From positions 62,001 to 126,000 of the forward strand of contig QPGO01000161.1 in the NCBI GenBank assembly GCA_008632985.1: a stretch of 64,000 nt of DNA, written 5' to 3'. Numbering within the stretch: the stretch's first letter is position 1; each line of letters opens with the position of its first letter. The DNA is from Psammoneis japonica. Lineage: Eukaryota. Positions 6,626 to 48,214 of this stretch are shown piece by piece. A program made the translations under genes and the position numbers. The notes below the pieces were generated by a model. It saw nothing but the letters and a program-made list of their open reading frames with translations. It ran no database searches and was not told where the DNA came from.

Positions 6626-9600
6626 AAAAACATGGTGCCAAGTTCAAGGACCTTCAAGGCAATGCCCTTTCCAGACAATCTGTTGTCTTGAAGAAAAGGC
6701 AAACACATGGGCACAACAAGAGTTTTGGAGCATTGTCCCAAGCATGTGCCTGGCTCTCAACTCAACTTCAGCAAGCAGCCAAATTGTCTTGAGGATGAGC
6801 ATGGGAGAAAGTTTCTTCCTTCAACAAAACACAAAATCAGATGCAACCTGTTTGGTTGGCACCAGCATTTACAATGATGGTGAGTTGTGTTTGATGTTGC
6901 TGTTTTGTTGTGGCCCACTCCTTTTTCTGTTTTCAAGTTCCTTCATTGAATGTGCCCAACAAAATGGCAAAGACATCCAGTGCTGGCTCCCCAGCCATTG
7001 GCTGCAAAAGACAAATGAGAACAAAAAAAAATGAAACATCGCTGGATGAAAATGAGGGGCATGTCAATCAGCACAAAGTGATGGAGGAGCACCTCAAGAG
7101 CCTTGTTGTTCCACCTGCATTGACACCACCCACAAGACATCAAGGCTGCAAGCAAAAGAGAAGCAGCGATGGAAAAAGGGGGCAATGAAGTGAAAGCCAA
7201 AAACCAATGGAAGCAGAAGGGTTGGTCCAATGAGGAAAAGAGGTTTCTTGAGAAAATGAGGAAAGAAATCAACAAGAACAAGGAAGTGGACAAAATGTGT
7301 GAGGAGTGGCAGGCAGCACACAAGCTCATGATGACCATCATGCAAGAGGCACAAAGAAGATGGAAGAGGGAGACAATGGGGAGGACACATCTGAGTTGGG
7401 TGCAAAGCCAGTGTGCAAAGAAGCACAAATCATGCTGGCAATTTTTGCATTGAGCAAATTGAGAAAAGAGTCAAACAGCGTGGAGCAAACATTTGAGTGC
7501 AACAGTTGTGTCATTGCCGTCAAGATGGGAAGGGCATTGGGAGGGGATGTGCTGACTCAGCTGGGGGCTGCTGTCAAGACCACAAAAACAGATTGTTCAA
7601 ATCATCAATCTGAGATTGACAAGACAAATCAAGTGATTTGCCAATGAAGTCACAGGCGACAATGACTGCAATCAGATTCCCAGGATGAATCATGGATTTG
7701 TGCTGCAAATCATGCAAAAAACATGGAGAAACACAGGTGTGTGCAATGACCATGCAGGGTGGGCCACACATGCCAGCATGATTTGTCAAATCCAGCCCAA
7801 GATGAGCACAGAAAGCAGAAAGCCTTTGGCTTTGCAAAACAGAGAGCACGGAACAACTTTGCAGAAGATTCCTGCACAGAAATGCACATGCACGCATGGA
7901 ACAACTTTGCAGAAAATTCTGCACAGAAATGCCCATGTGCAACACATGGCCCAGAAAATGGGAAGCCTTTGGCTTTGCAAAACAGGGAGCATGGAACAAC
8001 TTTGCTGAAGATCATGTGCAAAAATGTGCACAACATGCCATGTGCTTGGTGCATGCTCAGAAAGCTTTCACACATGGCAGTGCAGCAGCATGTGGCCACA
8101 CCTGGAGCTGGAGCACATGTCTGTCAGTGTCTTGTGGCTTTTCCTTTTTGCACACATGCACAAACAGCCAGTGCCTTTGTGCCCCTTTGTGCCAGACAGA
8201 GATGGACCCACAAGCAACCAAAAGCAACCGCAATTGACCATGAATCACAAACAGCCACAAGCAACCATGCTGGTCATCAAAAGAGATCACAGCTGGCCAC
8301 GCCAAAGCAAAGCATGTGCGCGGGTCAAAGACACCCTTGGAGAGCACACAAAGGAGCCAAACTCAACATTTGTCAACTGCCCCTCTCCTCACCTTTTGCC
8401 CTGCCTGACTCTCAAGTGCTTTTGAGGAAAATTTGCTGGGCACAGCAAAGAGGCAAGGCACAGTGCAGCATGGATCTCTCTGTCTTTTTCCTCTCTGGCT
8501 GGCTGGCTTGTCTCATTCAGCTAAAATGCAGCGTGCTTTGTTTTCACCAGAGAGATTGGGTTCCACAAGCACTTGGTCAAGCCACACTCCAGTGTCTTTT
8601 TCTGCCTGTGAAAAAGAGTTGAGACAGGCAAAAAAATCATGATGTGTGTGCATCTGCCACTCACCTGCATTTTTTCTCAAAGAAAGAATCCTGGTTGCCA
8701 AAGCCAATTCAATGGGGTTGCAGAGTTGTCTGTGCTGCAGTTGTTTTCATCATCAGTGGAAAATTGTGCCCTCACAAAAATTCCCAAAGCACAAAGTTTG
8801 CACAAGCTCCCAACAAAAATCACTGCATTGAACAGCGAGAAAGTCACACAGGATTTCACGTCAATCTGGTGCAAAATGAGTGCAAACATGTTCTCTTTGC
8901 TGCACAAGTGAAGCAAGCAAACAAGGAAATGCCAGCAGTGTTGACAGCTGTTGCTGCTGCCTTTTGTCAATCAGCTGCAGCACTCATCATAACGTCATCG
9001 CAGATGTCTGATGTTTGCATGAGTGGCAGAAAAGAGCAAATGCACATTGAGCAAAAATGTGACACTGACAGCTGACATCACTTGGCCCAGCATCTCACCT
9101 TGCAAATGCTGCATTGCAGAGCACAACAGCCAAACAAATTTGGCTGTTCAATCTCAGTGTCAGCAGATGACTCTGACATCTGAGAGGTCATTGCAGCAAG
9201 TGCAGTTGATCAACAACAAGAGCAGCAACAAGAGACATGCTCCAGTGCCAGGCAACACACAAAATGACAATTTCATTGATTTATGTGCCAAATGTGTTCC
9301 AGCAAAATTGTCTTAAACTCCAGTGTCAAATGCGTGCAAATGCCTTGTTCATGCTCCAAGGAACTGTTTCCTCAATGAGAAGCAAGCCCCAAAAGTGACA
9401 CCCACATGACAACTGACATGGCCGCACAAAGTGGTGGTGGGTGCTTTCCACCTTGTGACAACAAAAATGACGCCATCAGATCCATCACATTTTGCTCAGT
9501 CTTTGGGTGCCATTGCTTTTTGTTCACTCAAATGGCTTTGAACTTGCAGGCATTTAGTGTCTTGAAAGTCAAAGAGTTTTTGCACCTTCTTCTTGGACCA

Positions 9601-10632
9601 TTTTGACGCCCTTGTCTGAAAGTGTTCAACATGAAACAGCGCCATTGAGTCCACTCAATCAGCTTGCTCAGTCATTTGTGTGTTGGAAAGATCTGTTTCA
9701 TTGACCCCATGCATCAAACTTTTGGGCAACACATCAAGACCTGGTGCAGAATCTGTTGAAAGCAACCGATTTGTTTTTGCATGAAAAAGGCCACAGTTCA
9801 ATGTTTGCTTCAAGAAACATGTTGTGCAGACCTCACATTGTTGGTCATTGCCAACTCTTAAGTCACAAAAGCAAAGCACAGGTCTTGCAGCATTCAAACT
9901 TTTGTTGCTGGCTTGCAAGCATGCTTTGCATCACAAAAAAGAAGCAAAATCTGATTTGTCAAACTGTGAATTCTCTCAACAAACAATGGCACAAACAAGT
10001 GGAAGATTTCATCAAATTGTGCACACTCATGAGGACAAACAAAAAACACCCCCAAGGTCAATGCCCCTTTGTGGCCATCAGAGGCCGCAACACAGTGTTG
10101 TTCACTTTCCTTTGGAAAATTTGGAACATTTAATTTGACAAATGTGCGCCATTGTTGGTGACAGTTCTTTTTTTTTTTGACACTCAATTTACATTCATTG
10201 TTGCCGTTTTATGTTGGCAATTGTTGCCGTTGTGTTTTGCTTTTAAGTCACCAAAGAATTTCAATGAGCTCTTCATTGTTGAGTGATGCTTTTTGTTTTG
10301 ATTAATTTTTCACATGTTTGTGGAAACGTTAACTTTGACATTGCTTTTCAATGGCTTCACCGCAGCCTTGCGTCACCACAGACAATGGCATTTCTCCCTC
10401 GCCCCAGTCGGCCACGCAATTGCCCAGAGAGGAACACCAGCTCATCATTTCCACCTGCGCGCTCCAGTTGTCCAGTCAATCTGCCCCCACCTGCATTTTG
10501 GTGCCTTTTCTACATGCGCAGTTCTCTGCCCATTTCATGACAGTGCACCCTCTCCCCAAAATGCTTTTGAAGAGAGGGTGCACTGTTGTGAATCCTGTGC
10601 ATTCTACGTGAATCGGCAACTGACTGTTGGCC

Positions 10633-11556
10633 ATGGCGTCTGACGACTTTACCCCGTCTGACGACGAGGTTGACCCTGACCCTTCTTTCCAAATTACCAA
10701 GGACTCAAATTTTGATGAAATGGAACATTTCACCAATGGTTTCGGATTCGAATTGTTCCAACCCAAGCTCAAAAGCACAGTTGCAATGCGTGCCTCGAAA
10801 AAGAAGTTTTTGGAGTCAACAAATTGGACCCCCTCTCCAGAATTCCTTGCTCTTCCCTTCCTTTGTCACAAGCCGAAGTTGCGCCGTGTTCCTTGTGTTG
10901 CCGAAGTCATCCGCACCAACAATGTTGTAAGGAAAACCCTTGGCTGTCCCGACATTTGGTCCTGCATCATGACTCGTGGTTGGTCCATTAAGAAATCCCG
11001 TCGTGTGAAAGGCGAATGTGTCCTGCGACATAAAAATCTCGAGGAGGCTCTGCATTTCTCCAAAATGTCTGGAGAGACAGAAAAAGAACAGCAGAACCGC
11101 GTGCTTCTTCACCGCAACATCCAGGCGATGGTAGAATTTGTTTGTGCGATCATTGCCAGAGACGACCCAAATGATCCTTTATCCGGCAAGCCTTGTTTCC
11201 GATTTTTACGGTGCAAAAGTCTCCAAAGTTTGATCAACAATCGAGCCCAAGACCTCCACAGTGCCTGTTTTGTCACTGACATCGTCATGCGTTACGTTCA
11301 GCACAAGCCCAAGGACATGGACTGTTGGTTCTTGAAGATTTTCCGTCACGTCAAAACCCAAAAGGAATGGCGCCTCTTTGTCAACAGCTTTCTGGTTGTG
11401 TGCAACACTGATGATCCTGGCGCCCAGGTGGGTGAGATCAAGGGGTTCCTTGACGACTCAACCGGCAACACAAAGAACACGGTGACAATGCAAGGCAATT
11501 CCCTTGCACGCCGTGAGGCTCATGAAGAAAAAAATCAATTCCATGTTGAATCATGA
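10633..11556 (+). pseudogene. Element A ORF1, unknown transposon-associated protein (TpA-eroded)
   Basis: ~308-aa ORF just inside the left TIR. Homologues at 5744-6625 and 55349-55502 (minus). Confidence 0.65.
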
Positions 11557-11568
11557 ATTTGGGAAGCA

Positions 11569-14500
11569 TTGTCCCAAGGAGCAAATTGGCACCCGACCTG
11601 GGTGCAGCAAGCAGCTCACAATGCTCCGTTGCAGAATGCGTGGTCAGAGGGCCAACTGCTTGGAAGACGACAACAAATGAATCTGCAACTCCAAACCCAA
11701 ACGCAAAATTGGGAGGACCCGCAAGGATGGCACCTGTTTGCACGATGGCAAGAAACCCCCCTCACCTCCCACCTTCTGCCTTTCCGCCTGTGTCTGTCGT
11801 CTCAATGTCTCTTCTCACACCCCATGATTGTTCACGACCCACCAGAGCCTTCCTTGACCGTTCCCAACAAGAAGGCCAAGCCTGCATCTCGCAATGAACA
11901 AGCCCCTCCATCGCTTTCTGGCAATGTTCCGTCATCTGGGGAGGCGCACCGGACTCTCACCGCCGACCTTCCGTCACTCTCAGAAATTGTGGAAAACCTA
12001 AAACCTGCTTCTACCTCCAAAGGTCCTTCGTCCAAACCTCATTCCTCTCCTCCTTCTGTTTCAGCTGATCCTCCCGCGGTTACGTCTCCTCCCAGTGACC
12101 CTGACGACATGTCGTGGCTTGACCTGTCCACACTCCGTGATCGCTTTGACCCGTCCAAGTGTCGACCCGTCACCACCGAGGAAGTTTCTTCTCATTTGTC
12201 ACACCTGCACATCATTGACAAAGCCACCGACACTGATCAGGTGCTTCATCATTCCGCCACCGACTTTTGCCTGGCGGACAACTTGCGGGAAAACTGGCAC
12301 ACGTTCTCAAACAATGCGCCATCATGTGATTCCACCACCGCATCTCGTGTTCGAACGGAGCACCCTCCTGACCTTGATCACTTCTCTGAGGAACTCTCCG
12401 TCGCCCGTCAGGCTAACTCTCTGTACAAAGGGCACTTCGGGTGCCTTCGTGCATGCATTCCTGCCCTTCTTCCACTTGTTTTGTTGAAGGGAGAGTCCGA
12501 TTTGACACGTGACGGACCGGTTGCAGTTCAAAACGGCGAAGCACGCAGGATAAAGTTCGGTTGTGCTGGGAGAGCGCATCACCCCAAGACGCCTGGTTCT
12601 GCCAAACAGGCCAAACCAAAGGCCACTTACGGACTTGTTGTCTTTGAGCCCGATGACAACTTTGACGCCAACGAGACCTCCAAAATCAAGGTGATGGCAG
12701 CCGACATCCTTGACTCGATTCAGCTTTGCGAAAATGAGGTAGAGCTGAAAAAACTGAGCAATCCACCACCATTTAACTGGTCCCTTCGGTGCGAGGAACA
12801 CTTGCAAAAGTTGGGCAACGAAATGGGCTGTCCATTCTTCAAACGTGAGGACGTCACCATGCAGGGATTGTGCATTTCCCGGGGTCAAGACTGTGATGGT
12901 CACCGTGACAATAAAAACTGCATCTGGCGTTGACACAGGAAGACAGCTGCAGGTTGCTTCTTTGTCATGGATGCCTTTGGCAACATCTGGTCCTTCAAGG
13001 TTGTCACCAACAGCAGAGCCACCATTGGTGAATGCTGCGACGACCAGTGCGACATGAAGCCCATGCTTGCTCGCATGCACCACAATCAAGCTCAGCTTGA
13101 TTTCGCACTTAAAGACTTGGACTTGCAGCACGATGGTCCCACCCACCCCGATGTGTCTCTTTCCAGCATTGCATTCAAGCATCTTTCCCTTGACGACAAC
13201 AGGCCGTGGGACAATGTTCTCATTGGTGGAGGTGGCGACTCTTCACATGTCGAGGTGCACATGGATCGACTCAAGTTCCCGACTTTCCCAGTCAGGGACT
13301 TCCACTTGTCTGCCCCAGTCACAGTGATCTGCCGTTTCAAGAACATTGTGTGCCGATCGGGTCCCGACCCAAAACGAGTCATTCGTTTGGCGATCCATGC
13401 TGGCTGTCCCACCGGATGTCACCGATTTTACTGTGTGGGGGACAAGCATCTTCCTGACCTTTGTTGCGAAGGTGCTGACCCGTTTGTCAACTTTGCCGAT
13501 TGCTTGCAGAACACATTTGGGGTGCCACACGGTGACCCACAGGTGGGTGGGATCAGCCCTGCCAATTTGACTTACGAGAAATTTTGCGATGCATTTCTAG
13601 ACCCTTGTCACGTCGGAACCGCGAATGACCTGATTGACGCAATGGTGGAAGAAATCTGTGCTGCACTTCTCTGGATAAACAACAATGTCGACACCAACGA
13701 GTTCTGTCCCAACTTAATGGAACAACGGTGCAAGGCAGCGTGTGATGCTTGGGCAGACCGGGGAGCAGATCTCAGTGAGATTCGTCTCATGTTGGTGCTG
13801 CAATGTCTGGTGCTGGCAGGTGTGGCAGTGAAAGACCATCCAAGACTCAACGACATCATCTGTCCTGTCTTCAATTCGGGAGCTGCCGCACAACTGGGGC
13901 ACATCCAACCGGAAGAAAGGCCGCTCATGCACCAAAGGATGTCATCCGAAACAGGAACCGAAGAGCACGGTTGGAACGGAACCGAGCACAAACTTTGTGA
14001 GAATTCAGACAATCGCTGCACCTGCGTTTTTGATTGTGTTTTCCAAGGACCCTGTTCAGGACAAGACCTGTTTACCTTCTCTCCCTCTGGCCAGCATCTC
14101 CGCAAGCCATGTGGGTCAACCGAGTGTGAAATTTTGGAGTGTGTTGATGACGACCCCAACCTTTGCCAATCACAAGACAATGCTGAATCGCACACATTTG
14201 TGCGTGAATCAGCCGTGCAATCAGATGGTGCCAGTGTTTTCTCTGTTGTTGATGGACCACCCGCGGACAATGAACTTAGCTCATTGTCATCGGAGGAGTC
14301 TAGACTCACCGCAAACAATGAACTTAGATCATTGTCTTTGGAGGATTGTCGACTTGACGCGGAGAAAGAACTAAGTTCATTGGATTCGGAGGAGTCTCGA
14401 CTCGCCGCAGACAATGAACTCAGCTCATTGTCTTTGGAGGAGTCTGTGTTGTCGGAGGACTGCTCGTGTCCTGATTCTGACTGCCGCGTTCCAATTGTCA

Positions 14501-14805
14501 CGGTAGATTCTGTCATCCTTCAGTTGCAGGATCAAGAATCCGATGAAGATGATGCAAGTAACGCAACCGTGCACGATCGACCCGAGCCACCGGTCCTTTC
14601 ACAAGTGCAAGATTTTGACATGGACAAACATGTGAGTGCCATTTTTGCGCAAGTCTGTCAACAGCCGAAGAACTCCTACAATTGTTTGGTGTCATGTTTT
14701 TCACAAATCTCAATCCGCAACATGACTCCTCCTGTGCTTTTGTTTCACATTGTCATGTCATCCCCAGTCAAGACGGAGGTGCAAATGTCCTGTGGCTTTG
14801 CATGA
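11569..14805 (+). pseudogene. Element A ORF2: large protein with HxDxKN motif and E-x-x-LCE helical region; candidate DNA-modifying enzyme
   Basis: ORFs 11569-12933 and 12967-14805 are in the same frame, separated by one TGA. Ser/Pro-rich N-terminus, DCDGHRDNKNC at ~12890-12921, NSGAAAQL...TEHKLCE at 13873-14001. The function call is inference. Confidence 0.6.
14262..14445 (+). repeat. Coding tandem repeat, 48-bp (16-aa) unit x~4
   Basis: Units start at 14262, 14310, 14358, 14406 (ADNELSSLSxEESRL). Confidence 0.9.
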
Positions 14806-19754: not shown

Positions 19755-21233
19755 GTGAGAAGTCTGGGAGGGGTGCACCCACACCCACTGCAGAGCCAGA
19801 CACAAATGTTGCAATCAACAATGAATGCTGTTGCACAAAATGAACGCTTGACGGCACATTGGCCAAACGACTGCTGGAGGAGATTTGAAAGTTTGACAAT
19901 CATGATGGCAGAAGGAAGGCGACAAATCATGGAATCGGAGTGCGATGCGGCTTTTGATGAATTGGATCGTTTGATGCAAAGTTCACCACAAGGCAGCATG
20001 GTGCGTTCTGATGACACGGGCACAGCTTTGATCGAGTTTGAGAGCGGCACACATGCGGTTAACCTGCACCTGCGCCATGACATGATGGACCTGTTTTGTA
20101 TGATGAACGAGGAAGACATCCAACAAAGGTGGCGGGAACTGTGGAAGCAGAGGTGCAACTGCATGGTTTGGCTGCACGAACATGTGAGTGATTGGAGCAC
20201 AGAAGCAATTGAGTGCATGCACGCCAGCACAGGCATGATCTCAATTCACGACAACCTGAACTGGTTGAATGGCGTCGTCAACCGTGGGATCAATGCTCGC
20301 CATTGCCAGGAGTGTTGGGACTGCATCGCGACTCACCAAGACAGGCAAGGAAGGATGTGCTGTGTCTGCAGTGCTCTGCACAATGAAGGAGAGAAAGAGC
20401 TGAGGGATGAATTTGCAGCGGGTGCGTGTGATGACACAAAACCAGTCATTGACAGGGGAGACGTTTCGAGATTGAGACGGAATTCGAGTGTCCTCATGCC
20501 GACCTGTGGCATGGACGAGACAGGCACTTGCGGACCGTTGGGAGAAACATCGGCGAGGGGAGGCACATGCGGACTTGTAATGGACAAGAAGGGAATTGTT
20601 TGCGATGCATTAAAGCTGGCAAAGTGGTTCCAGTGTGACATCGTGCGAGACAACCATGAAAGACTTTGGTTCTGTGAGCAAATGGAGTTCTTCAGGTCAT
20701 CTCCAGGGACAGTCAATGAATGGATGCTGGACATCATCTGGAAGGAGGATGGTGAGCAGGAGAAATTTCAAAGCAGGAGAAAGGAAAAGCGTTGGGTGGA
20801 GAGACGTCATTGTGTTGAAGTTAACGAATTCATGAGAATGGTCGGAGTTGAGACGAGGGCTTTCAACCACATGACTGACTGTTGCGACAGAGGGCGACAC
20901 ATCAAGTTGAGAGTTATGAAGTTAGAGGGTGATGACGAATTGGACCAGAGAAAACGATTTGGTGCCAAAAAGGATGGATGTGCTTGGGCCCCAACAGCGA
21001 ACCGGAATTACGTTAAAGCAGGTGAGGGGTGTGTTCATTGTAGCAAAAACAACTTTCATGGGTGCACGTTTCACAATGATGTTTTGAACAAAGCACTTTT
21101 GCAAGCAATTTACACTGTGGAAGTGGATTTCGAAATTGCAGCAAAAGAGAGGTTTGAACTGGAATTCGCAATGATTCAAAATTTTCATGAGATTGTGAGG
21201 AGTGGCAAAATGGATGAATTGTGTGCACATTAA
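19755..21233 (+). pseudogene. Element A ORF, unknown ~490-aa protein
   Basis: Long ORF; its 3' end is conserved in the sister element (50357-50779, minus). Confidence 0.6.
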
Positions 21234-21340
21234 AAGATTTGGTCAATTCTCCAACTGTGAGATTTTTGGCATTAAAGAGAGGTTTGAAAATTTTCCAACG
21301 GCGAAAATGACTGGGACACAAGGCATGGAGCCACCCACAA

Positions 21341-22575
21341 TTGGCGACAATGGCGAGGAAGAAGAAGAAAGGAACTGCGGGGGTGGCTGGAGATCAACCA
21401 ACAAGCCCAAGGCTGGCCGCAGCGTTGGTGCGGGTGGGAGCCACTGGGGATCACCAGTCTGTGAAGAGAGAGGTGGAAGAGGTGGCGCGGAAGGAACTTT
21501 TCCCAAAGGCGAAATTCCTTGTCAAGGCGGACATGGCAAGCAGTGGCAAAGTGTCGCGGCTCATCAGGAAAAAGACAGCCGGAGGAAATTACAGCAAGCG
21601 AGACTGGGCGGGAGCGTGGGAAGACTGGGCAAAGAAGTGCGTCATGTGTGCAATTAACGCGAAAAGGAGCACGGTCACTCAGGCGATCAAGAACAATGCA
21701 ACGGCTGGCAAGTGTTTTGTGGTGCACGGCATGTTGAGTGTAGTTGCACTTGACACAGCTGCACCTTCATTTGTTGAAGTCGTGTTGACAGAGAATGAAG
21801 CAGAGGAGATGCGCAGTCAGAAGCTGGCAGCAAAGGGCAGAGGTGGGAAGAAGAGCAAGAACAGGACGAAGAACGATTGCACGGAAGAGGAAGAGCCGTT
21901 CCTGGCAACTTGGGGGGAGGAGACAGTGACAACGATTGTGGAGGACAAGCGCAAGAACAAGGAAGCATGTGCTTGGTTCTACAAAAACATCCTGAAATTC
22001 ACAAAGAGCACCACCACATGGAGAAGGAAGGTGGAGTCGGGTGAGACAAAGGCAACCGGTCTGGCTGCAGTGAGTGACGAGGCTCTAGCGCTGTTGACAT
22101 TGGAAAACTGCTGGAAGAGTTGGGAGCACAAGGCACGTCATGACAAGACTGTTGTGGCAGGGGGGGGGGTTCGGACGAAGAAGATGAGGAAGAGTCGGAA
22201 CCAACACCCAAGCACACGGACCCGTCGAGGCAACGAGACTCGTGGAAAGATGCAGGGATCAAGCAATTCAATGAGCTGCTTGCGGCAGTAAAGAAAGACA
22301 GGTTGAGTGAGGAGGGCATGCAGTTCGACACATGGCACAGTGAAGGCAAGAAAAGGAAGAGTGACGAAAGAGGCAAGGGATCAAAAAGAAAGAAAAAGCA
22401 GGTGGAGGAGGCAAGAACACAGGCAACAATGGAGCTTTCAAGTGACGACAAGGAGAAGGAGGAAGAGGTGACGGACGAGAACAGAGGAGACGAGGAAAGC
22501 AACGAAGGGGAGGAGGACAGTGATGCGGAAAGCAGTGCGAGTGTAGATGCAGATGGTGAGCGAGCTGCGGCATGA
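21341..22575 (+). pseudogene. Plavaka-associated accessory protein (SDEALALLTLENxW type), one intron and one frameshift
   Basis: KELFPKAKF...INAKRS...SDEALALLTLENCWKSW...PK(Y>H)TD...QFNEL, acidic tail. Candidate intron 21708-21779 (GCAAGT..GAAG). Frameshift in the G-run at ~22160. Near-identical copy at 49087-50325. Confidence 0.75.
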
Positions 22576-25330
22576 AAAGGTGGCGGAGGCTTTTGTTAGT
22601 GTGACAATGGAAAGAGGATGAGCAACGTAGCAGGTTTCAATGTTGACAGTCACAAGGTTTGACAAAGTGCCAAAGGGATCATTGTTTTGTGATCTAACCT
22701 TTTGTTTGACAACCAGTGCATGCAACAGAACGAGTGCATGCAATGGAAGGTTCTCTAAAAAATGCAACGCAATGATTGGCATTGATTTGTCATCAACCAA
22801 AAAGTTGTGAACATTGCTTTCAAAAGGTAAAAAGTGATGTGATTCTGACAGTCAAGGGAGGGGTCCCACAGGTGAAGGAGGGGTCCCATGGTGAAAATTG
22901 TAACACCATGACACACAATAAAAAATCACGTTCTACACAACTCACTCAACATGAAACTGTTGCATTTATGCCCACAACAGTGCTAAAAATTGCCCACAAG
23001 AAGGGTGGTCAGGATCACTGTGTTTCGCGCTCTGATGCTGCTGCAATGCAACCAGTGCAATGGAAATTGGAAATGAAGAGCAACCGCTTGTTTTGGTGCA
23101 CTCCTGCAGGCTTCATTGGTGTGTTGATGCACCCACAATTGGATCAAGCAAGAAATTGTTCTCCAATCATCAAAGCAACTGCAAGTTGGTGGCGGAGCAA
23201 AAATGATGCAAATTGGCCACAGCACAAAAAAACATGACTTGTTCTCAAGACCTGCATGAAATGAAAAAAGTTGATTTTTTGTGTCTCTTCATTCGCTGCA
23301 GATGCTGCAGTGGTTTTTGTGCAGGACTGTGCCACGTGTGCCATCAAAAGCTGCCGAACAACAACTTCCCATTGTGACAATGAAGTGTGATGGAGGTGAT
23401 GCTCATGCTGCCTTTTTCATGAAGCACACACAGTTGCAAAAACATGACAATCAACAAAGAAATGAAGAACAGGCTCCTTCCTGGTGAAGCAAGCAGAAAG
23501 TTGGTGCTTGATTGTCGGGCTTGGTTTTCAACAATCAGCTCCAAAATGTGCCCTTGGCATGGGCTGCACTGCATCTGATGATGTCCATTCATTGTTGCGG
23601 TTGGCTTGCATGGTGCATTGGTGAATTTCATGCTGCAAGCCTTGTTGGAAATCAACCTGAATGTGCCACATCATGATTGCTGTGGTTGGCAACTCAAGTG
23701 GTCGGTGAGATCTCATTTTCCTTGCGCGTGAGCTGTGCAGAAAAATCACTTGAAAAAATGGCTTTTGTTGGACCCAGCAGAGCACAACTTTTCTCACAAT
23801 GACACCCAGTTTCAACCATTCACACCATTGGAGAAAGTGCTTTTTCTTTGCTTTTTGGCAATGTGATTTCAGCAAAAGGTTGAAAAATGACAACACGCCA
23901 CATTTTTTGATTTTGCAGCTGCTCTTTTTTTAAGGCATGCACACAACCAAGTTGTGCAGAGCAGCACAATGTTGGACAGAGGATGGTTGTGCGTTGACTG
24001 TAATTTGTGCAACAAATTGCCGTTTGGCGCTGCCTGTGATGATGACAATTTTCTGGTGCTGTCAGAGAATGATTTTGCAGCGGGCCCTTGACACAACAAT
24101 GATCTGCTGTGCTGCGCAGAGAACACGAGTGTGCATGGAAAGTCCCCCAGATGAAGCCCTTGCCATTTGATGATGAGCACACAACAGTGGCTGGTCAGAA
24201 ACAGAGCCTGGCATTGGCGAAACGTTTTGCTGTTCAACGGAGGTTGATGGCAGAGACTTTCATGACTGAGTGAGTGCCTCCTGGGTGCAACAAACCAAAT
24301 GTCTGCAAAGACAAAAGACTCTTGGACACATCGCTGACATGACAAATGTTGCGACAACACACCACCTTCATGCCACATGTTGCTGCCATTTGGCAATGAG
24401 GTGGGCAGTGCACTGCGCATTTCTGGTGCAGTGGAAAATCCTGAAAAATCACAAATCGTCTTGCGTTCACCCCTTTCCTTCAGGCGTGCGGCTTGTTCAC
24501 CTGCGGCTTGAACACGCCAGCAGTTGGTGATGCGGCAGGCGGCCAAACCTGTCGGCGTCACTCAAGTCACTGGCAATTTTTCGTGAAAACGAGCCGAGCC
24601 TCTCACTTTTCAGGCCGTTGCCAGCATGGAGGACAAAATCACTCCCGAAAAGGCATCGACGAACCTGCGTCACATGCGTTAAGTGATCCTGACGTTGTCA
24701 GTTGGGTTTGTCAACTGCTTCAGTTTGAAGAATTTACTTCTCCTCATGTTTGCTCTTCAGCATGTGTGGTCCATTAAAAACTGTTCAGCAGTCATCATTC
24801 GAATTCTCAATGACTGGCATTTGGTCAAAAATTTGAATTTTCGGTCGCCTCAATGGTGCACACAACCATCACACCGGCACAATGTTGTTTTGCGACAACG
24901 TTTTTCATGCCGCCGATGAAGCCACCGAACCGCGCAAGTGTCGCTGTGTGGCATTTTTTTACCTGTTAAGCCATCTTACAGTGTCTCACACTGTGCTTGT
25001 TGTTTTTCCTAGCCAAAAAGAGGGAATCACGGATCGCATCACGATCGCAATCACGATCGCAACACACCACGAGTCCGCCGCAAACGTGCTCGCGAACGTT
25101 CCTTTTCCAAGAATCGGTCGCCCCAGAAGCGTCGGACTCGTCGTCGTGGCAAGAGCAAAAACCCTCCGCGACCTACATCCTTTGTGTCGAGTTTTTTTTT
25201 CTGGCGTGAAATGCAGTCTCTCGGCTGTTTTTGGTTCTTTTTTCACTCCCCCAACTGTGATGCCGCCAGCACCCAGTCCACCACAGCCTTCTCTGTTGAC
25301 TTCTCCACCATTTGTTGGTGTGATCGCTCG

Positions 25331-25426
25331 CTCGTTGGCTTGTGCTAGTGACTCAGGGAAGAAGACCGCCGGCTTGGACTCGTTGGCTTGTGCCAGTGAC
25401 TCGGGGAAGAAGACCGCCGGCTTGGA
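25331..25426 (+). repeat. Tandem duplication, 48-bp unit x2
   Basis: ctcgttggcttgtgcYagtgactcRgggaagaagaccgccggcttgga at 25331 and 25379. The only differences are TA/CA and CA/CG. Confidence 0.95.
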
Positions 25427-27274
25427 ACCCACCATGTTGGAGCAAGAGCCGACTTCTCCACTGGCAAATGCTGGTGTGATCAAACGCTCTGTGGCGAACC
25501 GCCAGAAAAAATCTCTGTCATCGTCAAGTTCTTTGACATCCTCTCAGGATTTGCTGACTTCTCCACTGGTGAATCCCGGTGTGATTGATCGCTCTGCGGC
25601 GAATTCCCAGAAAACATCGCGGCCATCATCGATTTCGTCGACGTCTCATGAGTCGACGTCTACACTGTTGCCACCTGCTGGTGTCAGTGACCGCTCTGCA
25701 GCGAACCGATCGTCGCCATTGTCGGATTCGAAACTGTCATCGATGCCGGTTCTCTTGCCAAAAGAGGCTTTGTCCTCTCGCCAAGAGGTGTTCAACCTCT
25801 TGCTTTCGTTGTCACCCTCCCAGGAAGACAATGATTCTATTTTTAATCATGGCTTTTTGGTGGAGGAAATGAAGCCCTCCTTCTTTCTGCTTCCCAAGGG
25901 AAACAGAAATGAGTTGGTTTCTTTTGGGAAACTGTCGGCCGAGCGCTGGCATTGTGTTCATCGAATTCACTTTTGGCCGCAAGCACCAGAACAAGCCCAC
26001 CTTCTGAAAACTGCTGTTTTTCCTCACTGCCAGACGCTCCCAGCAATTTTGCTTTTTTCGGTTGGGAACTACCTTGACTCCCATCCGACATCCGGTTTAG
26101 GTCTGCAATTGTATGATCCGAACGAAAATCATGCCAACGATTTACTTGTTCTGTTAAACAAGGGCGACGAACTCTCCGATGTCGTCAACGAAATTGATTT
26201 TGATTCGTTTGACCGCTTGACATCCCATGCTTGCCGTTTCAACCCAATCCCCAAGAAAACCGAGAACCCCGACGGCACTTTAACCACAACCATTCGTCAG
26301 CGCTCAACGAACTACTGTGACGCAGGTTGTTGTGGTGGGCAGTCTGGAGACCGGGATGACTCACCCGACGGTCACTGCATTCCGTCCCTGCGGCAGGGCA
26401 CCTGTTGTTCTCCGAGTGTTGGAGACGATACGGAACACGACCCAACTGCAATTGGTGCGATGATTGCTGTCTCCAAAATGTCAAAAGTACTTGCCAAAGA
26501 TGCGCCATTTGTGGATGGTGACAATCCCTTTGAGGATCGTCTCAACCCCACGCGCCAACAAGAATTTGCTGGCGCTCTCCATCCCTCTATTGTGATCGAA
26601 GTTATTCGTTGTTCGCTCTCAAGGCCGGCTCCACCAGAGAAGAAGGAGGACTGTGACACCCACGTCGACGACAAAAATGGCGACATCGAACCTGTCTGTG
26701 GTGTTTCCAAGATCAAGGATGGCCCTGATGGTGTCCCCCGTCGCCATGCAGTCAATGGACAGATGAGGAAATCCATTGACGACCTCTTTCGCAACAGGCG
26801 CAACCAGGATGCAATTCTCGACGACCTGGTAAGAGCTTGTGATCGATTCGACGTGTCAAGACTCAAGATCAGCAACAGCATACGAGATGCCGGCGATGCA
26901 GTCGAGTGGATTCCAGGGTTCCCGGCCAATCGCACCCACTGCAATCTCGACCCTGATTGGTTCACCATGATTGTTCATGACTCAATTGTTCGGTTGGGTG
27001 TGCAGTTCAACCTCAACTACATTGAATTGCAGTCGGTGCACCATGCTTTTCATTGCCATGCACCTGGACCCTACTTCCTTGGTGTCGCCAGTCGGATTCT
27101 TCTGCCAGCCCCTCCAAGGAAGTTAAGGAGGGACATGGTGAACGAAAAGTTTGGACATCATGTTTCCAGGCTCATCATTTTTCTGTTCAACATGTTCAGG
27201 GAGAGGACTGGTGGTCGGGGTGGCCAAATGACCTTCCGACGATGGGGTCAGTTGCCCGACCCAGAGCTTGTGCC

Positions 27275-27726
27275 NNNNNNNNNNNNNNNNNNNNNNNNNN
27301 NNNNNNNNNNNNNNNNNNNNNNNNNNNNNNNNNNNNNNNNNNNNNNNNNNNNNNNNNNNNNNNNNNNNNNNNNNNNNNNNNNNNNNNNNNNNNNNNNNNN
27401 NNNNNNNNNNNNNNNNNNNNNNNNNNNNNNNNNNNNNNNNNNNNNNNNNNNNNNNNNNNNNNNNNNNNNNNNNNNNNNNNNNNNNNNNNNNNNNNNNNNN
27501 NNNNNNNNNNNNNNNNNNNNNNNNNNNNNNNNNNNNNNNNNNNNNNNNNNNNNNNNNNNNNNNNNNNNNNNNNNNNNNNNNNNNNNNNNNNNNNNNNNNN
27601 NNNNNNNNNNNNNNNNNNNNNNNNNNNNNNNNNNNNNNNNNNNNNNNNNNNNNNNNNNNNNNNNNNNNNNNNNNNNNNNNNNNNNNNNNNNNNNNNNNNN
27701 NNNNNNNNNNNNNNNNNNNNNNNNNN
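27275..27726. other. Assembly gap (N run)
   Basis: Run of N. Confidence 1.
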
Positions 27727-28114
27727 TATTTTCGAAACGACCGGTGATGACGAAACAGCAGTTCACCCACCTGGACGCACGAATGCAGGTGCTTGCCACC
27801 AAATGTTCGATGCAATCCCATTCGGTGACTCGCAAGTGACCTGGGATGAGTTGGTTGAGCACCTGAAACTTGCTGATGCAGGCAACCTCCCCTCGTCCGT
27901 CGTTGAGTTACAGTCACACGAGTGTCCTCAAGAACTCATAAATCCCAAGCAGCGGCTGTCTGTTCTACACCCAGTGAACAGTTTGCGCCCTCTCAGTCGA
28001 GAGACTGAGGCCTTTTGCAAGAAGGTCCTCTGCGATGCACTCAAAATTAAGATCTAGTTTGAGTTCCAACATGTTGTCTCCAATCCATTTGTAATTGCAC
28101 AAGAAAGTCTGGCA

Positions 28115-30395
28115 TTAATAAGTGGGTGGCTGATGGAGATTTAGTCCATTTCCACAAATGTGAGTGCGTCGCTTCTTGGAGTCATGTTCAGAACAGTTGG
28201 ACACCCATCGCGGCCCCTCACTGCTTGTGTTGTTGGTCTCTTGCACATCACGGTGTGTGTGAAACTTTCCTCGGATGTCCACAATTAGATCATCGATTGA
28301 TTTGACAGTGTGAGATAAGTCGGGTGCTTCCATTTGATGGATGTTCTCCGACTCGCATAGACCGTGCAGAGTCGACAACTTGGGGGCCAACACCTGTTGC
28401 ATGTTTGTGGGAGTGACATTTGCAGGAGGGTCTTGAGGAGAACCACTCATTTCTGATTCTTCGAGAGCAAACAGATCGCCGTCTGCACTGCACTCATCGT
28501 CTTCAAGATTGAACGCATCTCCCAGTTGGTCACGTTGGCTTGCATCGACATCAGTCAATTGGGAGCAACCAATTGCGCTTAGACCCAATTGTGTGGGGTC
28601 TGTGCAACGCAGTGCTCGGTTTGCTTGATCGGAACTGCAGTTACGGAGTGAGTGACAAACATCCTGCGGTTTGTCAAAAACGGATTCATCCGGTGTACTT
28701 GAAGTTGGTTGAGGTGCTGGCTGCCACCATTCAGGCAGGCATGGTCCTCGAACATCATTGTCGAGGATGGAATCAAACAATCCGTCCAGACCCTCAACAT
28801 GACGGTCACCGTTGAACGCACAGTGAAAGCACTTGCGCCACCAAACAATGGAAACATCATGGTGTGTGAATCCCAAGTGTGCATTGCCAAGTTCGTGCTG
28901 GCCAACCGCAAGGAAGTGCATGCAGCCAACACCCGTTCTCTGGAACTCTCCGCAGCTACAGTGAAGCACACCCTCTGCATCTAGCTTCACTTTTCGCACT
29001 CTTTGAAACTTGGGCATTTTGGAAAAGAAAGGATTGGCTTCTTCCTCTTCGTTTGACAATGGAGCTTCATTGGATTTCTTGTGGACCACCTCCCATGTCG
29101 GGTGTTCGCCATCCTCCTTGCCGCAGCACCGCACGTGGAAGTCATGTCAATGCTTCCACCGTTCAGCAATGACACCCTCACACACAGTGACGACATGGTC
29201 CGCTGCAGGTAGATTAGACCAGAGGCATTCAGTTGTTGCCATGCGGTTGCTTTCTGCATGCAGCTCTGCAACCTTTACGTCCGATTGCATGGCAAAGTTC
29301 ATGACTGGTGGCCAAGTTCTGTGATGGCAGTGCTGGAGCAGAATGGTTCTTCATGCCAAAGTTGGTGCCCTCGTGGCTAGAATTGTTTGCTTCCTCACAA
29401 TGGCGGAGGAATTTCTTGCGGTGGAAGGCATGGCAGTTCTCCCAGGCCCACACCTTATCTCAGATAAAGACAACGATGCGCTGAACGGTTGACTCGACAC
29501 CGTCGCACATCTGGAGGACTCTTGGGGAATGCAGAAACATGATGAGCAACGACTTGGAGACCTTGAGTTCATCTTCATTCTCGCACCCTCCAGGGCACAT
29601 GAATGAACACAGCCAGGCTTTGACTGTGGCAACAAATTGCTTGTGGGTCTCACGCCTCTGGCCAGGAGACACACAGGTCTCACCAGGACAGTGACGCAAC
29701 CATCCCTTTTCCACAACATGCCAGCCACAACGTCCTTGGAAGACATCCGGCATGTAGACTTGAATTGCACTGCGCAACTCCCAGATTTCTTGGGAGTCTC
29801 CATCCGTCAATGCCAACTTGATTCGCCGCAGTGCGTCTGCATCAAGTAGAGTGGGTAGCACCACCTGAAACACCCACCGAAACGTCCCCTGTGTTTGATC
29901 AGGAAGAAAGATTTGGAGGAAAACAATGCAAGAGCCATTTGGCGCACGGACGGAGAAAGTCAGGCATGGCCTTTTCTCGTTGTTGGTGTGAGATGTGGCA
30001 TCCACTTTAATCACATGTGGCATTTGGCGAAACAATCGTGTCTCGCCCTTGAGTGTCCAAGCAGCACCGACAAAGAGGTCATCCTCAGGACCAAGCTGGG
30101 CGGCTTCCCTCTCACGCCTGTGCTGGTCGACCACCTCGGAACAAAGTTCCTCGAGGTTCTGGATCTCCCTTTCTCCATTGACACAAGATTCGTTGAAAAG
30201 TGACGAGGACTGGAAACGTGGGTTGCGTTCCCGGGTTGGCGTCTGCACAGCATTAGCTCCACTTGCGAGAACAGAGTGTTCAATGTCTTCACGACTCTGA
30301 AAAAACCTCTGAAGCTCCAGGATGCCGTCATCCAAAGCGGCATCTTCAGAAGAGGGTGGGAATGGGGTCAACTCTTCCTTGTCAGCCTGTCGCAT
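28115..30395 (-). pseudogene. Mutator/MULE transposase with SWIM zinc finger, 5'-truncated
   Basis: VDATSHTNNEKRP, LTDGDSQE, CGWHVV, NSSHEGTN, SWIM CSCGEFQRTGVGCMH. In-frame TGA at 29460 and a frameshift near 29200. Confidence 0.9.
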
Positions 30396-33300
30396 GACGC
30401 AACGAAACGACCAGTCTCCGCCTACCTACGGTTATATAGCTCAATATTCATTTATCCTTGACTTCATTTTGGCATTGTCCAATACTATAGAGGGAACCAT
30501 CAAGTGCTTGGCTGAAGGGGAGGACGACAAAGACTACGTGGTGTCGAGTTTCATCAACGATTCTTTCGAAGGAGCGGCCTCTATTGCCGATATCTTCAAA
30601 AACCCCAATCCCCGTGATAACCCTCTCGAAGACTTTATTGCTCCTCCCTACGTCGATCCTGATAATTGCGCCAGCGCAAATTCAACTTGTTCGAGCGACA
30701 ACCTATGTTGCGAAAAACCTGTTGGTAGCGATGGCGTCTACCAACCTGAGTGTGATTCCGGGACTTGTGATCTCACTGATTACAATACCAACAACGTGAA
30801 CGCTACATGTTTCAAAGAAGGCGCTTCGTGCACAGACAGTGGACAGTGCTGCCAGAAGGAAGACCAACTCGTCATTTGTCAGAAGCAGTACAACAGTACT
30901 ACTAACTACTACACTGGAAGTGGCAAATGCGAAGATGCACCTCGGCAGCCTATTGGTTGGAATCCTTTTTGCATTGCCTACAATCTGAACACCTTTGCAT
31001 TTTCGTTTGCGGAGCCCTTTCCACCCATTTACCTTGATCCGGCTGGATTTTTAGGTACGCTGCTGCCAAACAACCCCGGTCCTAAACTACAAAATTTTCC
31101 ACCAGCAGGGGATCCCAAGGTAACTTTAAATTGTACCGACTCAGCTTTGATGCATTGATGACTTGTCACTAACTTCTCTCACTACATTTCTGCCCTTAGC
31201 AATGCGAATTGGTGAACGGATTTGCGAAAGTGGCGGGCAAGGTAACAATCGGTTTCCAAATTCTGGGCTTTGGTGGGTCAGCGGGTGACGGCCTATCGTA
31301 TGGCACCAACTTGTTCACCTCCGGAACGGAATACGGCGACTCCGTTCCCACCGTCTGGGATGGATTCTTGAGTGTGCCTCTGGCACCAAATCCTGGTACT
31401 AACTTCTGGCTTGCCGTTCGAATCAAACTGTTACCTACTCCACTACACAAGTGGAATGTGAAGGAGTGCGAGCTGGCTCAGAAACGAGTCTTCCTTCCGG
31501 GAATTTTAACGAGTCCCTCTAATTTTTTTCGCAAGCAGCTTGCTACGATAGAGGTGCGGCTCGATCTAGAGCTGTATGTGGACGGTGGCGGTGGCGGTGA
31601 TAGTGAATGTATCATTGTTGCTTTAACCAGTGCTACTTTGAAACTCTCCTTTTTTCAATTCACCTTGGGCCGAGGCATTGGTGGATGGTGCCGAAATGAG
31701 GACACATCGAATACATGCTCGCCTCAAGGCTTCTTTTTGAACTTCGAACCAAAGTTTGAAGGAAGAACTGGCGCAGTGAATATACCCTTGAACGGTATTC
31801 TAAGAGGCCTTGGTGCCGCAGAGGAGGCAACTAAAGAGACTAATCCGACTACGTTTTCATTGGACCCAGCGAACTTTGGAGCGGACGGCGGATATAGCCT
31901 TGGGGTTTTCGTGGATAGCTCCCAGGCAGCCACAGCAGTAGCTCTTCGTATGGAGACCAATACGCTGAAACTCTTTGGAATCGGTTTATCTCCGCAAACC
32001 AAAATCCACTTCCAGTGGTATCGTGGATCTGAACAAAATCGTCGTGTTGAATCGCTGCTCAGGATTGATGGTACGCCAAATTGCGAAAATATTGTTGCGA
32101 GCTGTAGCGAATGGAAACCGTATATTCGCACAGTCGACGGCGCTGATTATTATGGAGGGAAGAAAGTTGAAATCTGCCAGGATAGACTCTTTGACCTTGA
32201 CCGATACAACCAGCTTATTGTCGCCACCTCTTCGTACGGCGAGCCAGATTATCCGATTCGGGTAAGTTCATAGTTGACGTGGTGATGCTACTCCAATGAC
32301 TGCCATGACCTCTGTCTCACCCTTTCTTGCACAGATCGATCCCGATGTGGATGTCGAAGTTTGGTACTCTAACCCAAAGTTTGATCAGGCCAACAACGAA
32401 GACTCCAACAACATCATCGTCTATTTGGCGATCCAGAACTGGAATACCGGGATAGTGAACCTCGATGATCTTTCTTTCGTTTTCATTCTGCAAGTCGAGG
32501 AAGATAGCGATCTGACCATCACCGTTCCTGAAAACCCTACCGACGATGACTTCAATGTGCTGGGCAACGACGTTGAGGCGCAGTTGGAAACCATCGAAGA
32601 AAGCAGCAAGAAGGTTGATATTTACGCTGACATCCAGTTGCAACTCACGGTGTTATTCTTCGTTCAGATAAAATCAGCTGCAAGCGTTCAGAACAATGCT
32701 GACGGACAGGGGACGTATTCCCATTGGGTAGTTGCTGGAGGAGTAAGATGATCGCTGGTGGCAACTTCAGTATATCTAATCCTCAAGAGACATTTCAAGG
32801 GGATCGAGAACTAATTGATGATAATGAATATCGGAGATGGCTGGAGGAAGAGGTAGAGGAAGTGAAGCCCGATTACAACATTGACTTTACTCTGGGCTGC
32901 GTTCGAGTTAGCGATTTTATATTTGCCGGTCTGACAGATTTGTACGCCACGTTGCTGACACCTGCGTTTGTGCGCGTCGATGAGCTTTTGGTGGGTGTAG
33001 GAAAGGAGGTAGATCGCCTTCTCAACGAAGCGTCTTTCCTAAATGGCGAGTCTTGGAGCAAGCTAAGAGGGATTGCGACGCAGCTCAAAAACAATCGAAA
33101 AGACGGGTTTGAGAGCCTTGCGGAGGCCGTGGAGGAAGAAGATTGGGAGGATATTAGTCAATTGATTGCGCAAATCATCCTCAATGAGTAAGTCCGTTTG
33201 CTCCGGAGTTTTCTCTAGGTTTGTTCCGGTCACTCTCTTACTTGCCTGGCCGCCTTTGCTGTTGCGCCTCTCTTGTAGGTTTGAAGCTCGATTGCAGGTT

Positions 33301-42489: not shown

Positions 42490-42717
42490 GTGGCTGCCTT
42501 GATGGGCGCTGAAACTGGCTTTGGAGAGCAGACGAATTTCTTGGTTGCAAGCAAATTGCTGTTTTTGACATTGTCCAGTTGCCACCGGCTGACAAGGTTG
42601 GTGTGTTGAAGGCCATCCACACCATGGAACGCTCATCCATCTGGCATGTGCGCGGCAGGTGTGCACAATGGCAAGCAACTCCCCATTGCTTTGATTCTTG
42701 AAAAACCAGCTCAAATG
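42490..42717 (-). pseudogene. 3' piece of an older Plavaka transposase, continuing from 56064-56420
   Basis: WFFKNQSNGELLAIVHTC and LQHTNLVSRWQLDNVKNSNL match CFFQRESDGDLHAVVHPC and MQHTDLVSRCQLDQVKNNNL of 15713-16696. Confidence 0.8.
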
Positions 42718-43465
42718 CTTGGTTTGGTTTTGCCGTGTTTTTGAACAAAATTCCCCGGGATCACCACCTTTTACCCTGTTTTTCTACGGAAAGGGTGAAT
42801 TCCCGGGGAATCGACACGAGTTGCCCTTCGTTGCATGCATGCTTGGTGCACGAATGAAGAATTGCACATCGGCAATTCCCCGTGCTTCCCCTCTCATACA
42901 TTTCCACGTGTTCTGCGTGCCGGCACGTGCGGAGCCACACATCAGACATCAGAACTGAAATCAACAATCGCAACAAAAATGGGCAACATGCCATGGAGCG
43001 GCTTGCACCCCATTTGTGACGGCTTTTGTCCAACAATGATGACACCAGTCAATCCAGTGAACAACATTGCGATCGACAGCATAAAACACAAAATGAATGG
43101 AAGCTTGACAGACCATTTTTAGAAAAAAATGGTGCATTGACAGATCGTTGCACTCATTCTTTTGTCGTGCGGTCACAAGTGCAAGCCATGTGGTGTCTGC
43201 AGCAAAATCCAAGGCAAAAGCAGAGCTGTCCATGGCAAACAAAAATGTGGCGGATTGAATGGTCTTGCTTGTTTTTCCAGTCGACACATCTCATGTTCAG
43301 AATGAAGCGGATCATTTAGAATCACTGTTGTCGTCCAGCTACAAATGCAAACCATGAGGCATCTAAAGTGAAGGCTCAGGCAAAAGCAGAACCTCGCCAG
43401 GCTAAAAAAAACATGTCAGATTGATCATTCATGCTCATTCTTTCCTTTGAACTGTCTCATTTGTC

Positions 43466-43744
43466 TGCCGAGTGTCACGGTCATCAATGTTCATTCGTGG
43501 ATGTCAGCATGGTGTCAAAAGTGTCAAAAGGATGTCAACGATGACACTTTCTAGAAACCTCTTCTCTTTTCTTGATGCATCTCGATGCCTCTCAAAAGAT
43601 TGTTTCTTTGTGTTTCTGCGCAGTTTCTCAGCATTGATTCTGCCAGATTTCGGAGTGGCCGAATCTCTTTCATTTCTTCTCACAACATTGGCAACAGTCC
43701 ACTTTACAACGCCATTTTGTGCAACTGCTTGGCGCCACTTGGCA
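43466..43744 (+). repeat. 5' LTR
   Basis: TGCCGAGTG...CACTTGGCA; direct repeat of 47923-48214. Confidence 0.95.
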
Positions 43745-47922: not shown

Positions 47923-48214
47923 TGCCGAGTGTCACGGTCATCTGTGTTCATTCGTGCGTTCATTTGTGGATGTCAGCATGGTGTCAAAAGTGTCAAAAGG
48001 ATGTCAACGGCGACACTTTCTAGAAACCTCTTCTCTTTTCTCGACACATCTCGATGCCTCTCGAAAGATTGTTTCTTTGCATTTTCTGCACGGTTTCTCA
48101 GTGTTGATTCTACGAGATTTCGGAGCAGCCGAATCTCTTTCATTTCTTCTCACAACATTGGCAACAGTCTACTTTACAATGCCATTTTACACAACTGCTT
48201 GGCGCCACTTGGCA
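47923..48214 (+). repeat. 3' LTR
   Basis: Direct repeat of 43466-43744, preceded by the PPT. Confidence 0.95.

Follow-up and report, generated by a model that had tools for sequence, protein, structure and literature searches.

Here we describe a gene carried by a transposable element of the diatom Psammoneis japonica, found in a window of 64,000 nucleotides (positions 62,001 to 126,000 of contig QPGO01000161.1, forward strand; window coordinates below count from its first base). The stretch from ~24.4 to 30.43 kb is likely to be a decayed copy of a Mutator-like element (MULE) with a conserved second gene that converges on the transposase (gene B), whose product is predicted to have TET/JBP-like and glycosylase/transferase-like domains and would act on DNA bases. 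Proteins of this type are predicted to comprise ~700–1,100 residues in three parts: a double-stranded beta-helix (DSBH), a helical domain, and a small C-terminal beta domain. We document the family, its fold assignments, its linkage to MULE transposases, and the joint mobility of the two genes. The features of the element are as follows (P0015 is a family member used as reference).

25260 to 27274, plus strand: gene B up to the assembly gap, with 25260 as the first ATG that follows a low-complexity leader and is in the family frame
25824 to 26800, plus strand: TET/JBP-like DSBH domain (predicted), aligning to P0015 residues ~11–306
26661 to 26678, plus strand: H-V-D-D-K-N, with His at 26661–63 and Asp at 26667–69 (family columns 97% and 92% conserved)
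26766 to 26777, plus strand: R-K-S-I, predicted to close the beta-hairpin that follows HxD (conservation across the family: Arg 82%, Ser 86%)
26801 to 27274, plus strand: first half of the predicted helical domain, aligning to P0015 residues ~307–452
26940 to 26954, plus strand: C-N-L-D-P motif (family conservation C 92%, N 81%, D 83%, P 85%)
27275 to 27726, no strand: assembly gap of 452 N, hiding approximately family positions 452–605, where the conserved H, GLLP.W, and EN..CK..R motifs lie
27728 to 28057, plus strand: C-terminal part of gene B past the gap, with a TAG stop at 28055–57 (positions 605–711 of the family model, E 1.5e-7)
28115 to 29299, minus strand: MULE transposase, downstream frame, with a SWIM finger at ~28904–28966
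29274 to 30425, minus strand: MULE transposase, upstream frame, with the MULE DDE domain at ~29709–30014

The reading frame of gene B is open from 24837 to 27272 (812 codons), up to the gap, and its product is Ser/Pro-rich to ~25820 and conserved thereafter. Long open reading frames (ORFs) are easier to find in this element because TA is depleted and TAA and TAG are therefore rare. The frame of gene B is more than chance, since TGA is not rare and a hidden Markov model (HMM) of the family, run against the six-frame translation of the window, matches 25824–27275 in one frame (E 1.6e-138). Past the gap, the same model matches 27725–28048, and thus the gene runs on to the TAG at 28055–57; the nominal frame differs from that before the gap because the length of the gap is arbitrary. 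An earlier reading of the window (the sequence-only reading) had proposed that the gap conceals part of the C terminus, and this is where approximately family positions 452–605 do fall. Contigs of a public DNA run (X1) enter the gap by 242 and 197 letters, one on each side, and the 30 letters per side that we translated keep the gene frame and fit the family (PELV/PFRQRQNEVS and FKDTHFRDSV/IFETTG). Incidentally, the Ser/Pro-rich N terminus contains a 48-bp in-frame tandem duplication (25331–25378 and 25379–25426, 96% identical) and about four copies of a G-V-I-x-R-S-x-A-N-like peptide (25300–25720).

The family was collected with phmmer, using the translation of 25950–27272 as query against 1.84 billion cluster representatives (clusters at 50% identity). 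This recovered 48 proteins at E≤1e-3 and 16 at E≤1e-10, the best at 6.8e-51. The ten top clusters have members from environmental assemblies, either unnamed or labeled “hypothetical protein.” The most conserved columns (in P0015 numbering) on the N-terminal side are R52, H60, H80, R156, Q157, D162, G164, and R173, followed by C255, H258, D260, S276, R287, N291, Q293, R295, S297, and D299. The CN.DP motif contributes C352, N353, D355, and P356; the helical and C-terminal regions contribute E380, G423, R445, P452, H512, G521, and P524, and the last conserved columns are E581, N582, C585, K586, and D602. Gene B retains nearly all of the top columns that it covers, including the H, D, R, and S residues and CN.DP. 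The motif DCDTHVDDKN, as a signature of the family, stands in part: C..H.D and the downstream R.[ST]I are conserved, D-C-D and the K are not. A word-index protein search with gene B gave no matches, nor did one with a fragment of a second window element (element A, see below), and the ESM Atlas returned no usable match for P0015.

In a Pfam search of the window ORFs, only MULE and SWIM were matched. PF10551 (MULE) lies in the minus-strand ORF 30425–29460 (E 2.2e-9, 38.1 bits vs. a cutoff of 27.6), and SWIM in 29146–28115 (E 0.0035, 17.3 bits, slightly below the cutoff of 19.6; in the relative from environmental locus L003, SWIM passes the cutoff with 21.5 bits). Compared with the L003 transposase, that of the window shows 35% identity over residues 343–715 and 30% identity over residues 715–927, the latter in another frame (E 2e-78). 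The frame changes near 29274–29299, and the first ~340 residues of the relatives have no counterpart. Gene B and the transposase lie tail-to-tail, with stop codons at 28055–57 and 28115–17 and 57 bp between 28057 and 28115. Two claims of the sequence-only reading, that the neighbor belongs to the MULE superfamily and that the two genes converge, are thus borne out, the first by the Pfam match together with the 35% identity and the second by the positions of the two stops.

The linkage can be followed beyond the window. A scan of metagenomes with six B-family members (six-row alignment A3) as query provided seven loci (L001–L007). In L003, the homolog (3988–7395, plus strand) is followed by a convergent 1071-aa (amino acid) protein with MULE and SWIM domains, and in L005 by a convergent 1085-aa protein with the same two domains; in L001 and L002, a convergent MULE transposase lies directly downstream from the homolog. 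A convergent MULE transposase is therefore present in all four environmental loci that extend far enough downstream to be informative (L004, L006, and L007 do not), and so the homologs are linked to transposases, a point that had been set beforehand as a test of the sequence-only reading. Gene B is 28% identical to its L003 homolog which, together with the 30%–35% identity of the transposases, indicates that the pair has been kept together over deep divergence.

Two of these loci also bear on mobility. L003 3134–10722 and L005 1559–7864 are 98%–99% identical, except for a 1.28-kb deletion in the passenger gene of L005. Their flanks share no BLAST match (MAFFT aligns ~70 bases of the L003 right flank with the L005 left flank). 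Inverted repeats of 32–39 bp form the ends, pairing 3127–3165 with 10684–10722 in L003 and 1559–1590 with 7826–7857 in L005, and the unit that they bound in L003 contains two genes only. Because two near-identical, inverted-repeat-bounded copies sit in unrelated flanks, we conclude that the gene pair moves as one unit; this supports the view that a gene of the B type is a genuine MULE passenger (second gene). MULEs generate target-site duplications of ~9–11 bp. No matching direct repeat was seen flanking the L003 and L005 copies, whose outermost bases differ between ends, so that the exact ends are ambiguous. As a side observation, the L005 deletion is internal to the TET-like gene (region 2413–4537), and the frame of the MULE transposase is intact. 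For the window element, CpG rises at ~24.4 kb, ~860 bp upstream of the gene B ATG; in L003, the left inverted repeat (3127) precedes the open frame (which begins at 3988) by a matching distance, and this spacing and the CpG rise suggest that ~24.4 kb is the left edge. The right end appears to be truncated at ~30.43 kb.

For the fold of the protein we relied on an AlphaFold2 model of P0015 (full length, 716 aa), built from a 54-row alignment and confident (predicted local distance difference test, pLDDT, 90.8; predicted template modeling score, pTM, 0.87). The model was compared with 48,161 representative chains using VIA-align, and the best 50 rows were examined. Among these, 37 fall on residues ~1–307, and 36 of the 37 are titled as 2-oxoglutarate (2OG)/Fe oxygenases, the exception being the uncharacterized 2rg4. 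NgTET1 ranks first of all 48,161 chains for this domain (Z 9.7, 167 residues aligned, root-mean-square deviation 3.7), followed by TET2 (7.3), CMD1 (7.1), CcTet (7.1), AlkB (7.1), and FTO (7.0). Given that NgTET1 leads the ranking and that TET/JBP structures take four of the first six places, the assignment of the modeled N-terminal domain as TET/JBP-like is well supported. The family differs from TET enzymes in lacking a sequence-level match to family models, in its spacing of ~35 residues between HxD and R.S, and in its large extra helical domain.

The other 13 of the 50 rows fall on residues ~299–612, and 10 of them come from the helix-hairpin-helix (HhH) glycosylase group. The best match is gp46 of phage PaMx11 (8z2m), a glycinyltransferase acting on 5-phosphomethyldeoxyuridine (5-PmdU; Z 8.0, 231 residues aligned). 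The queuine-salvage protein DUF2419 accounts for two rows (Z 7.4 and 6.9), and AGOG (two rows), Mag1, MagIII, Tm1821, EndoIII-3, and NTHL1 score Z 4.1–5.4. From the model, a glycosylase/transferase-like (HhH) fold is probable for the helical domain. Foldseek against the viral library BFVD gave no significant E-value; two JBP1/TET oxygenase proteins (0.66 and 0.44) and one amino-acid:DNA transferase protein (0.60) are among the rows of higher probability.

As to the putative active site, the P0015 model places HxD ahead of a beta-hairpin (strands 272–281 and 284–293) that ends in R.S and leads into a long helix. R.S lies at the hairpin end, where the oxygenase alignments also end, and in gene B it is a candidate site for 2OG binding. 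We infer that a gene-B-type protein is catalytically competent and acts on DNA bases. If so, the dioxygenase-like domain would oxidize a 5-methylpyrimidine (5-methylcytosine, 5mC, or T), and the glycosylase/transferase-like domain would flip out the oxidized base and then excise it or modify it further. The outcome would be that silencing marks on the element are erased or masked. The function guessed at in the sequence-only reading, epigenetic modification or counter-defense, agrees with the TET/JBP-like fold of the P0015 model.

Several observations weigh against this interpretation. No Pfam family is matched at E≤0.01 by the 49 aligned B-family members (Tet_JBP and aGPT-Pplase included), nothing relevant by the 10 long members at E≤10, and a profile search of Protein Data Bank (PDB) sequences with the family alignment A2 gave none at E≤10. 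The fold assignment is built on Z-scores and on the model of one homolog, which is 23% identical to gene B in A2. Foldseek with the whole multidomain model found no PDB entry at E≤1e-3. It should be noted that best VIA-align Z-scores of 7–8 are common where there is no true relative and can reach 13–14 for helical folds; the gp46 match is only suggestive because its Z of 8.0 is within this uncertain range. No conserved His, the expected third metal ligand, was found in the B-family alignment between HxD and R.S, which are ~35 residues apart, and the alignment therefore does not show a canonical 2-His-1-carboxylate site. The element encodes no kinase, on which gp46-type transferases of phages depend. 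Around the window element, an inverted-repeat search returned only short, chance-like matches.

Two of these points, the missing His in the expected segment and the missing Tet_JBP match, would also fit a protein that has the TET-like fold and is inert, serving its MULE as a DNA-binding or base-flipping accessory factor in transposition or targeting. Such a protein would be comparable in role to the non-enzymatic second genes of Mutator-type elements, and the retention of a second gene at 28% identity would be explained by any useful accessory function. However, the family conserves the H and D of HxD (97% and 92%), R.S, and a set of polar columns (R52, H60, H80, R156, Q157, D162, and R173), as an active site would be expected to. 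The third ligand could come from either of two other conserved His residues: judging from the alignment, H60 or H80, upstream of HxD, may serve. We therefore regard an inert accessory factor as unlikely and prefer a base-modifying enzyme.

The predicted pairing of the two folds in the enzyme recalls phage DNA modification. In phages, T-dioxygenases occur in regular genomic linkage with kinases and amino-acid:DNA transferases (PMC13229309, PMC8989533), and this linkage argues that it is biologically meaningful for one protein to combine the two folds. Transferases of the gp46 type are described as placing glycine onto phosphorylated 5-hydroxymethyluracil (5-hmU) in DNA (PMC8989533, PMC13229309), with a companion 5-hmU DNA kinase encoded alongside (PMC8989533). 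As in the gene-B family, the phage thymidine hypermodification modules (5mYOX, 5-hmU DNA kinase, and transferase) bring together a TET/JBP-type domain and an HhH-like transferase fold. They differ in being separate proteins that include a kinase, whereas here there is one eukaryotic transposon protein with no kinase and no Pfam aGPT-Pplase match. A bolder version of the interpretation, which we consider doubtful, is that this MULE lineage carries a phage-like, two-step base modification machine in one polypeptide, whose catalytic core would have been recruited independently by element A, an unrelated transposon. The TET/JBP-type domain would first oxidize T or 5mC, and the amino-acid:DNA-transferase/glycosylase-like domain would then perform a transfer onto the oxidized base or excise it; in this way the element would write a hypermodified base on its own DNA or actively demethylate it.

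Element A is the second transposon in the window, and its gene was proposed in the sequence-only reading to be homologous to gene B.

11557 to 14805, plus strand: element-A gene, with HRDNKN at 12901–12918 and an in-frame TGA at 12931–12933

The features cited in favor of that homology are, for the most part, present. DCDTHVDDKN lies at 26649–26678 in gene B and DCDGHRDNKN at 12889–12918 in element A (both plus strand), and they are the only H.D.KN matches in six frames of the window. Both genes have Ser/Pro-rich N termini, and the RKSI of gene B has a downstream counterpart in element A, RATI. The upstream R..E...L....E segment, also cited as common to the two, does not hold up, the spacings in A and B being unlike by eye. 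An Asn stands three residues after HxD in gene B, in P0015, in element A, and in P0073, which is an unmutated relative of the element-A gene (54% identical, E 1.8e-185).

Whether these resemblances reflect common descent is a harder question, because two transposons with unrelated passenger genes could share a motif by chance, and several comparisons read that way. BLASTP of gene B against the element-A gene reaches E 0.4 over the motif only, and the B-family HMM run on the six-frame window has no match on the element-A gene at E≤10. The profile-profile alignment suggested at the outset was run with hhalign and is marginal: probability 0.1%–0.2% for the element-A gene; P 0.008 and probability 4.9% for P0073 (100 columns covering HxD..N, the NSR.(A)I segment, and the CN motif); and P 0.031 and probability 1.6% for a profile of both (A5). 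An HMM of the DSBH only gives the element-A gene 0.1 bits, far under the eight best of 2000 shuffles (3.8–7.9), and its score on P0073 is reached by 144 of 5000 shuffles. No A–B similarity was detected beyond a core of ~65 residues, and an AlphaFold2 model of P0073 (three rows) has no usable fold (pLDDT 32.5).

On the other side, the full-length B-family HMM (Z=1) aligns residues 443–508 of the element-A protein with a score of 3.2, which 1 of 2000 shuffles attains; for P0073, 11 of 5000 shuffles attain its score. In the reverse search, an A-family HMM against 52 B-family proteins matched P0044 (E 3.2e-4), P0043 (2.2e-3), and P0037 (4e-3), all three on one HxD-hairpin-R.S segment of ~65 residues. 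Three of the 52 outscore all 1040 shuffled family sequences, and seven exceed the 99th percentile of these shuffles; P0073 alone matches P0044 at E 0.0037. The spacing from HxD to R.S is equal in the two families, with no intervening His in either. Overall, a chance match appears improbable to us, and by these comparisons the two genes are quite probably remote relatives over the HxD-hairpin-R.S core. The proposed homology is thus weakly supported, for the core segment, by the reverse HMM search (E 3e-4 to 4e-3), and the direct tests are negative or marginal.

A wider kinship was considered and dropped. C-terminal motifs of the element-A protein (L.C..L.G, E..LC, and GQ.LF.F) appear collinear with the B family by eye, but the sub-HMMs have no match on the element-A gene (the helical one included), and on P0073 the score of the C-terminal sub-HMM is reached by 304 of 5000 shuffles. 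The partner ORF in element A (18748–15713, minus strand) has no match in Pfam or among PDB sequences and no similarity to MULE; by eye only, it has CACTA-type transposase-like motifs. Searches with the element-A fragment gave 47 pattern matches in the metagenome scan, none confirmed, and only unnamed, low-value matches in the ESM Atlas.

Both window copies have been altered by mutation. The observed/expected ratio of TA is 0.11–0.23 across 25–30 kb and 0.00–0.17 across element A, compared with 0.5–0.7 in the genes beyond 30.4 kb and 0.48–0.64 in the related loci. Tyr makes up 1.0% of the gene B product vs. a family mean of 3.7%, and at 10 family-Tyr columns gene B has Tyr twice, His twice, Cys twice, and another residue four times. 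Likewise, many Tyr residues of P0073 are Cys or His in the element-A gene. Both copies look dead and hypermutated from TA to TG/CA, as a result of which some of the Cys and His residues in these ORFs are not original. The MULE copy is probably dead on three counts, being hypermutated, with conserved Tyr changed to His or Cys, and having a transposase that is both frame-changed and N-terminally short. The in-frame TGA of element A (12931–12933) aligns to an Arg of P0073, consistent with a change from CGA to TGA, and the next residue is a His that aligns to Tyr.

The TA-poor block covers gene B and the transposase together and ends sharply at ~30.42 kb; with this, and with the convergent pair found at all four informative loci and inside the 98%–99% identical copies, it is very improbable that gene B is a normal gene of the host with a dead MULE inserted next to it, even though neither terminal inverted repeats nor a target-site duplication were found in the window. 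The element is thus better read as a decayed MULE with its own second gene.

Some further observations were made on the same stretch. Over 26300–28600, the 29 differences listed when the window is compared with the X1 contigs are all transitions, and many form adjacent pairs with CA in one sequence and TG in the other (e.g., 26436–37, 26976–77, 27156–57, 27193–94, 27768–69, 28365–66, 28445–46, and 28491–92). This is the pattern that would be expected if two copies or alleles had each independently changed the same ancestral TA. To the left of the element, 23000–24400 is very poor in CpG and contains a single TA over its 1,400 bp; it is more mutated than the element and has the look of an older repeat. 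To the right, plus-strand ORFs with normal TA occupy 30450–33000 just past the TA-poor block, one of them Cys-rich (30313–31158), and are presumably host genes.

Elsewhere in the window, fragments of the element-A partner protein occur at 42495–42722 and 56080–56355, and inverted matches pair 10076–10794 with 56054–55342 (81%) and 20926–23037 with 50779–48627 (86%). From these coordinates, element A may span ~13 kb, with a second, internally shorter copy in the opposite orientation at 48.6–56.05 kb. A 256-bp direct repeat (43489–43744 and 47958–48214, 91% identity, 4.5 kb apart) may be a pair of long terminal repeats.

Transposon-borne DNA-base oxygenases are already known. There is reportedly earlier work, by Iyer and coworkers in 2014, on transposon-encoded TET/JBP dioxygenases of fungi, and the abstract of a 2013 study by Iyer and coworkers is said to mention such systems in stramenopile algae. 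More recently, TET/JBP genes were described on 11 lineages of fungal DNA transposons, where they are proposed to help in escaping methylation-based silencing (Kojima 2025, PMC12730594). As here, these genes adjoin the transposase inside DNA transposons and are spread over unrelated lineages, and some of the proteins have diverged to the point of being recognizable only by comparing their structures with CMD1, NgTET, and CcTET (PMC12730594). The fungal carriers differ in that their 11 lineages do not include MuDR/MULE and their hosts are fungi rather than a diatom; in the available parts of that article, “mule” is absent, “mudr” occurs twice (both times unrelated to TET), and diatoms are not mentioned (PMC12730594). 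Nor do those parts mention a fused glycosylase/transferase-like domain, such as is predicted for the gene-B family (PMC12730594). Unlike the fungal transposon dioxygenases, the gene-B family has no identifiable distal His. Full-text literature searches gave no account of a JBP-type dioxygenase on a diatom transposon and, for JBP-type dioxygenases with MuDR, nothing relevant beyond Kojima 2025; a TET plus transferase-like architecture in algae has possibly been described earlier. Another parallel is offered by the VANDAL-type plant MULEs, which encode their own anti-silencing protein (cited in PMC12730594). These are likewise Mutator-superfamily elements with a second gene proposed to undo the element's own epigenetic silencing. 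The VANDAL anti-silencing protein is not known to be an enzyme of TET-like fold.

What is new, then, is the carrier superfamily, the host group, an unannotated family, the domain fusion, and the unusual layout of the active site. Documented transposon TET/JBP genes have so far been fungal, and the gene-B finding would add a diatom host and the Mutator superfamily as a carrier. It would also add a fusion of TET-like and glycosylase/transferase-like domains that otherwise recalls phage DNA hypermodification pathways. With at least 48 cluster representatives lacking annotation, the family has been missed by standard pipelines. Intact copies exist, and a gene such as that of L003 could be tested directly as a candidate source of a novel DNA-modifying activity in marine algae.

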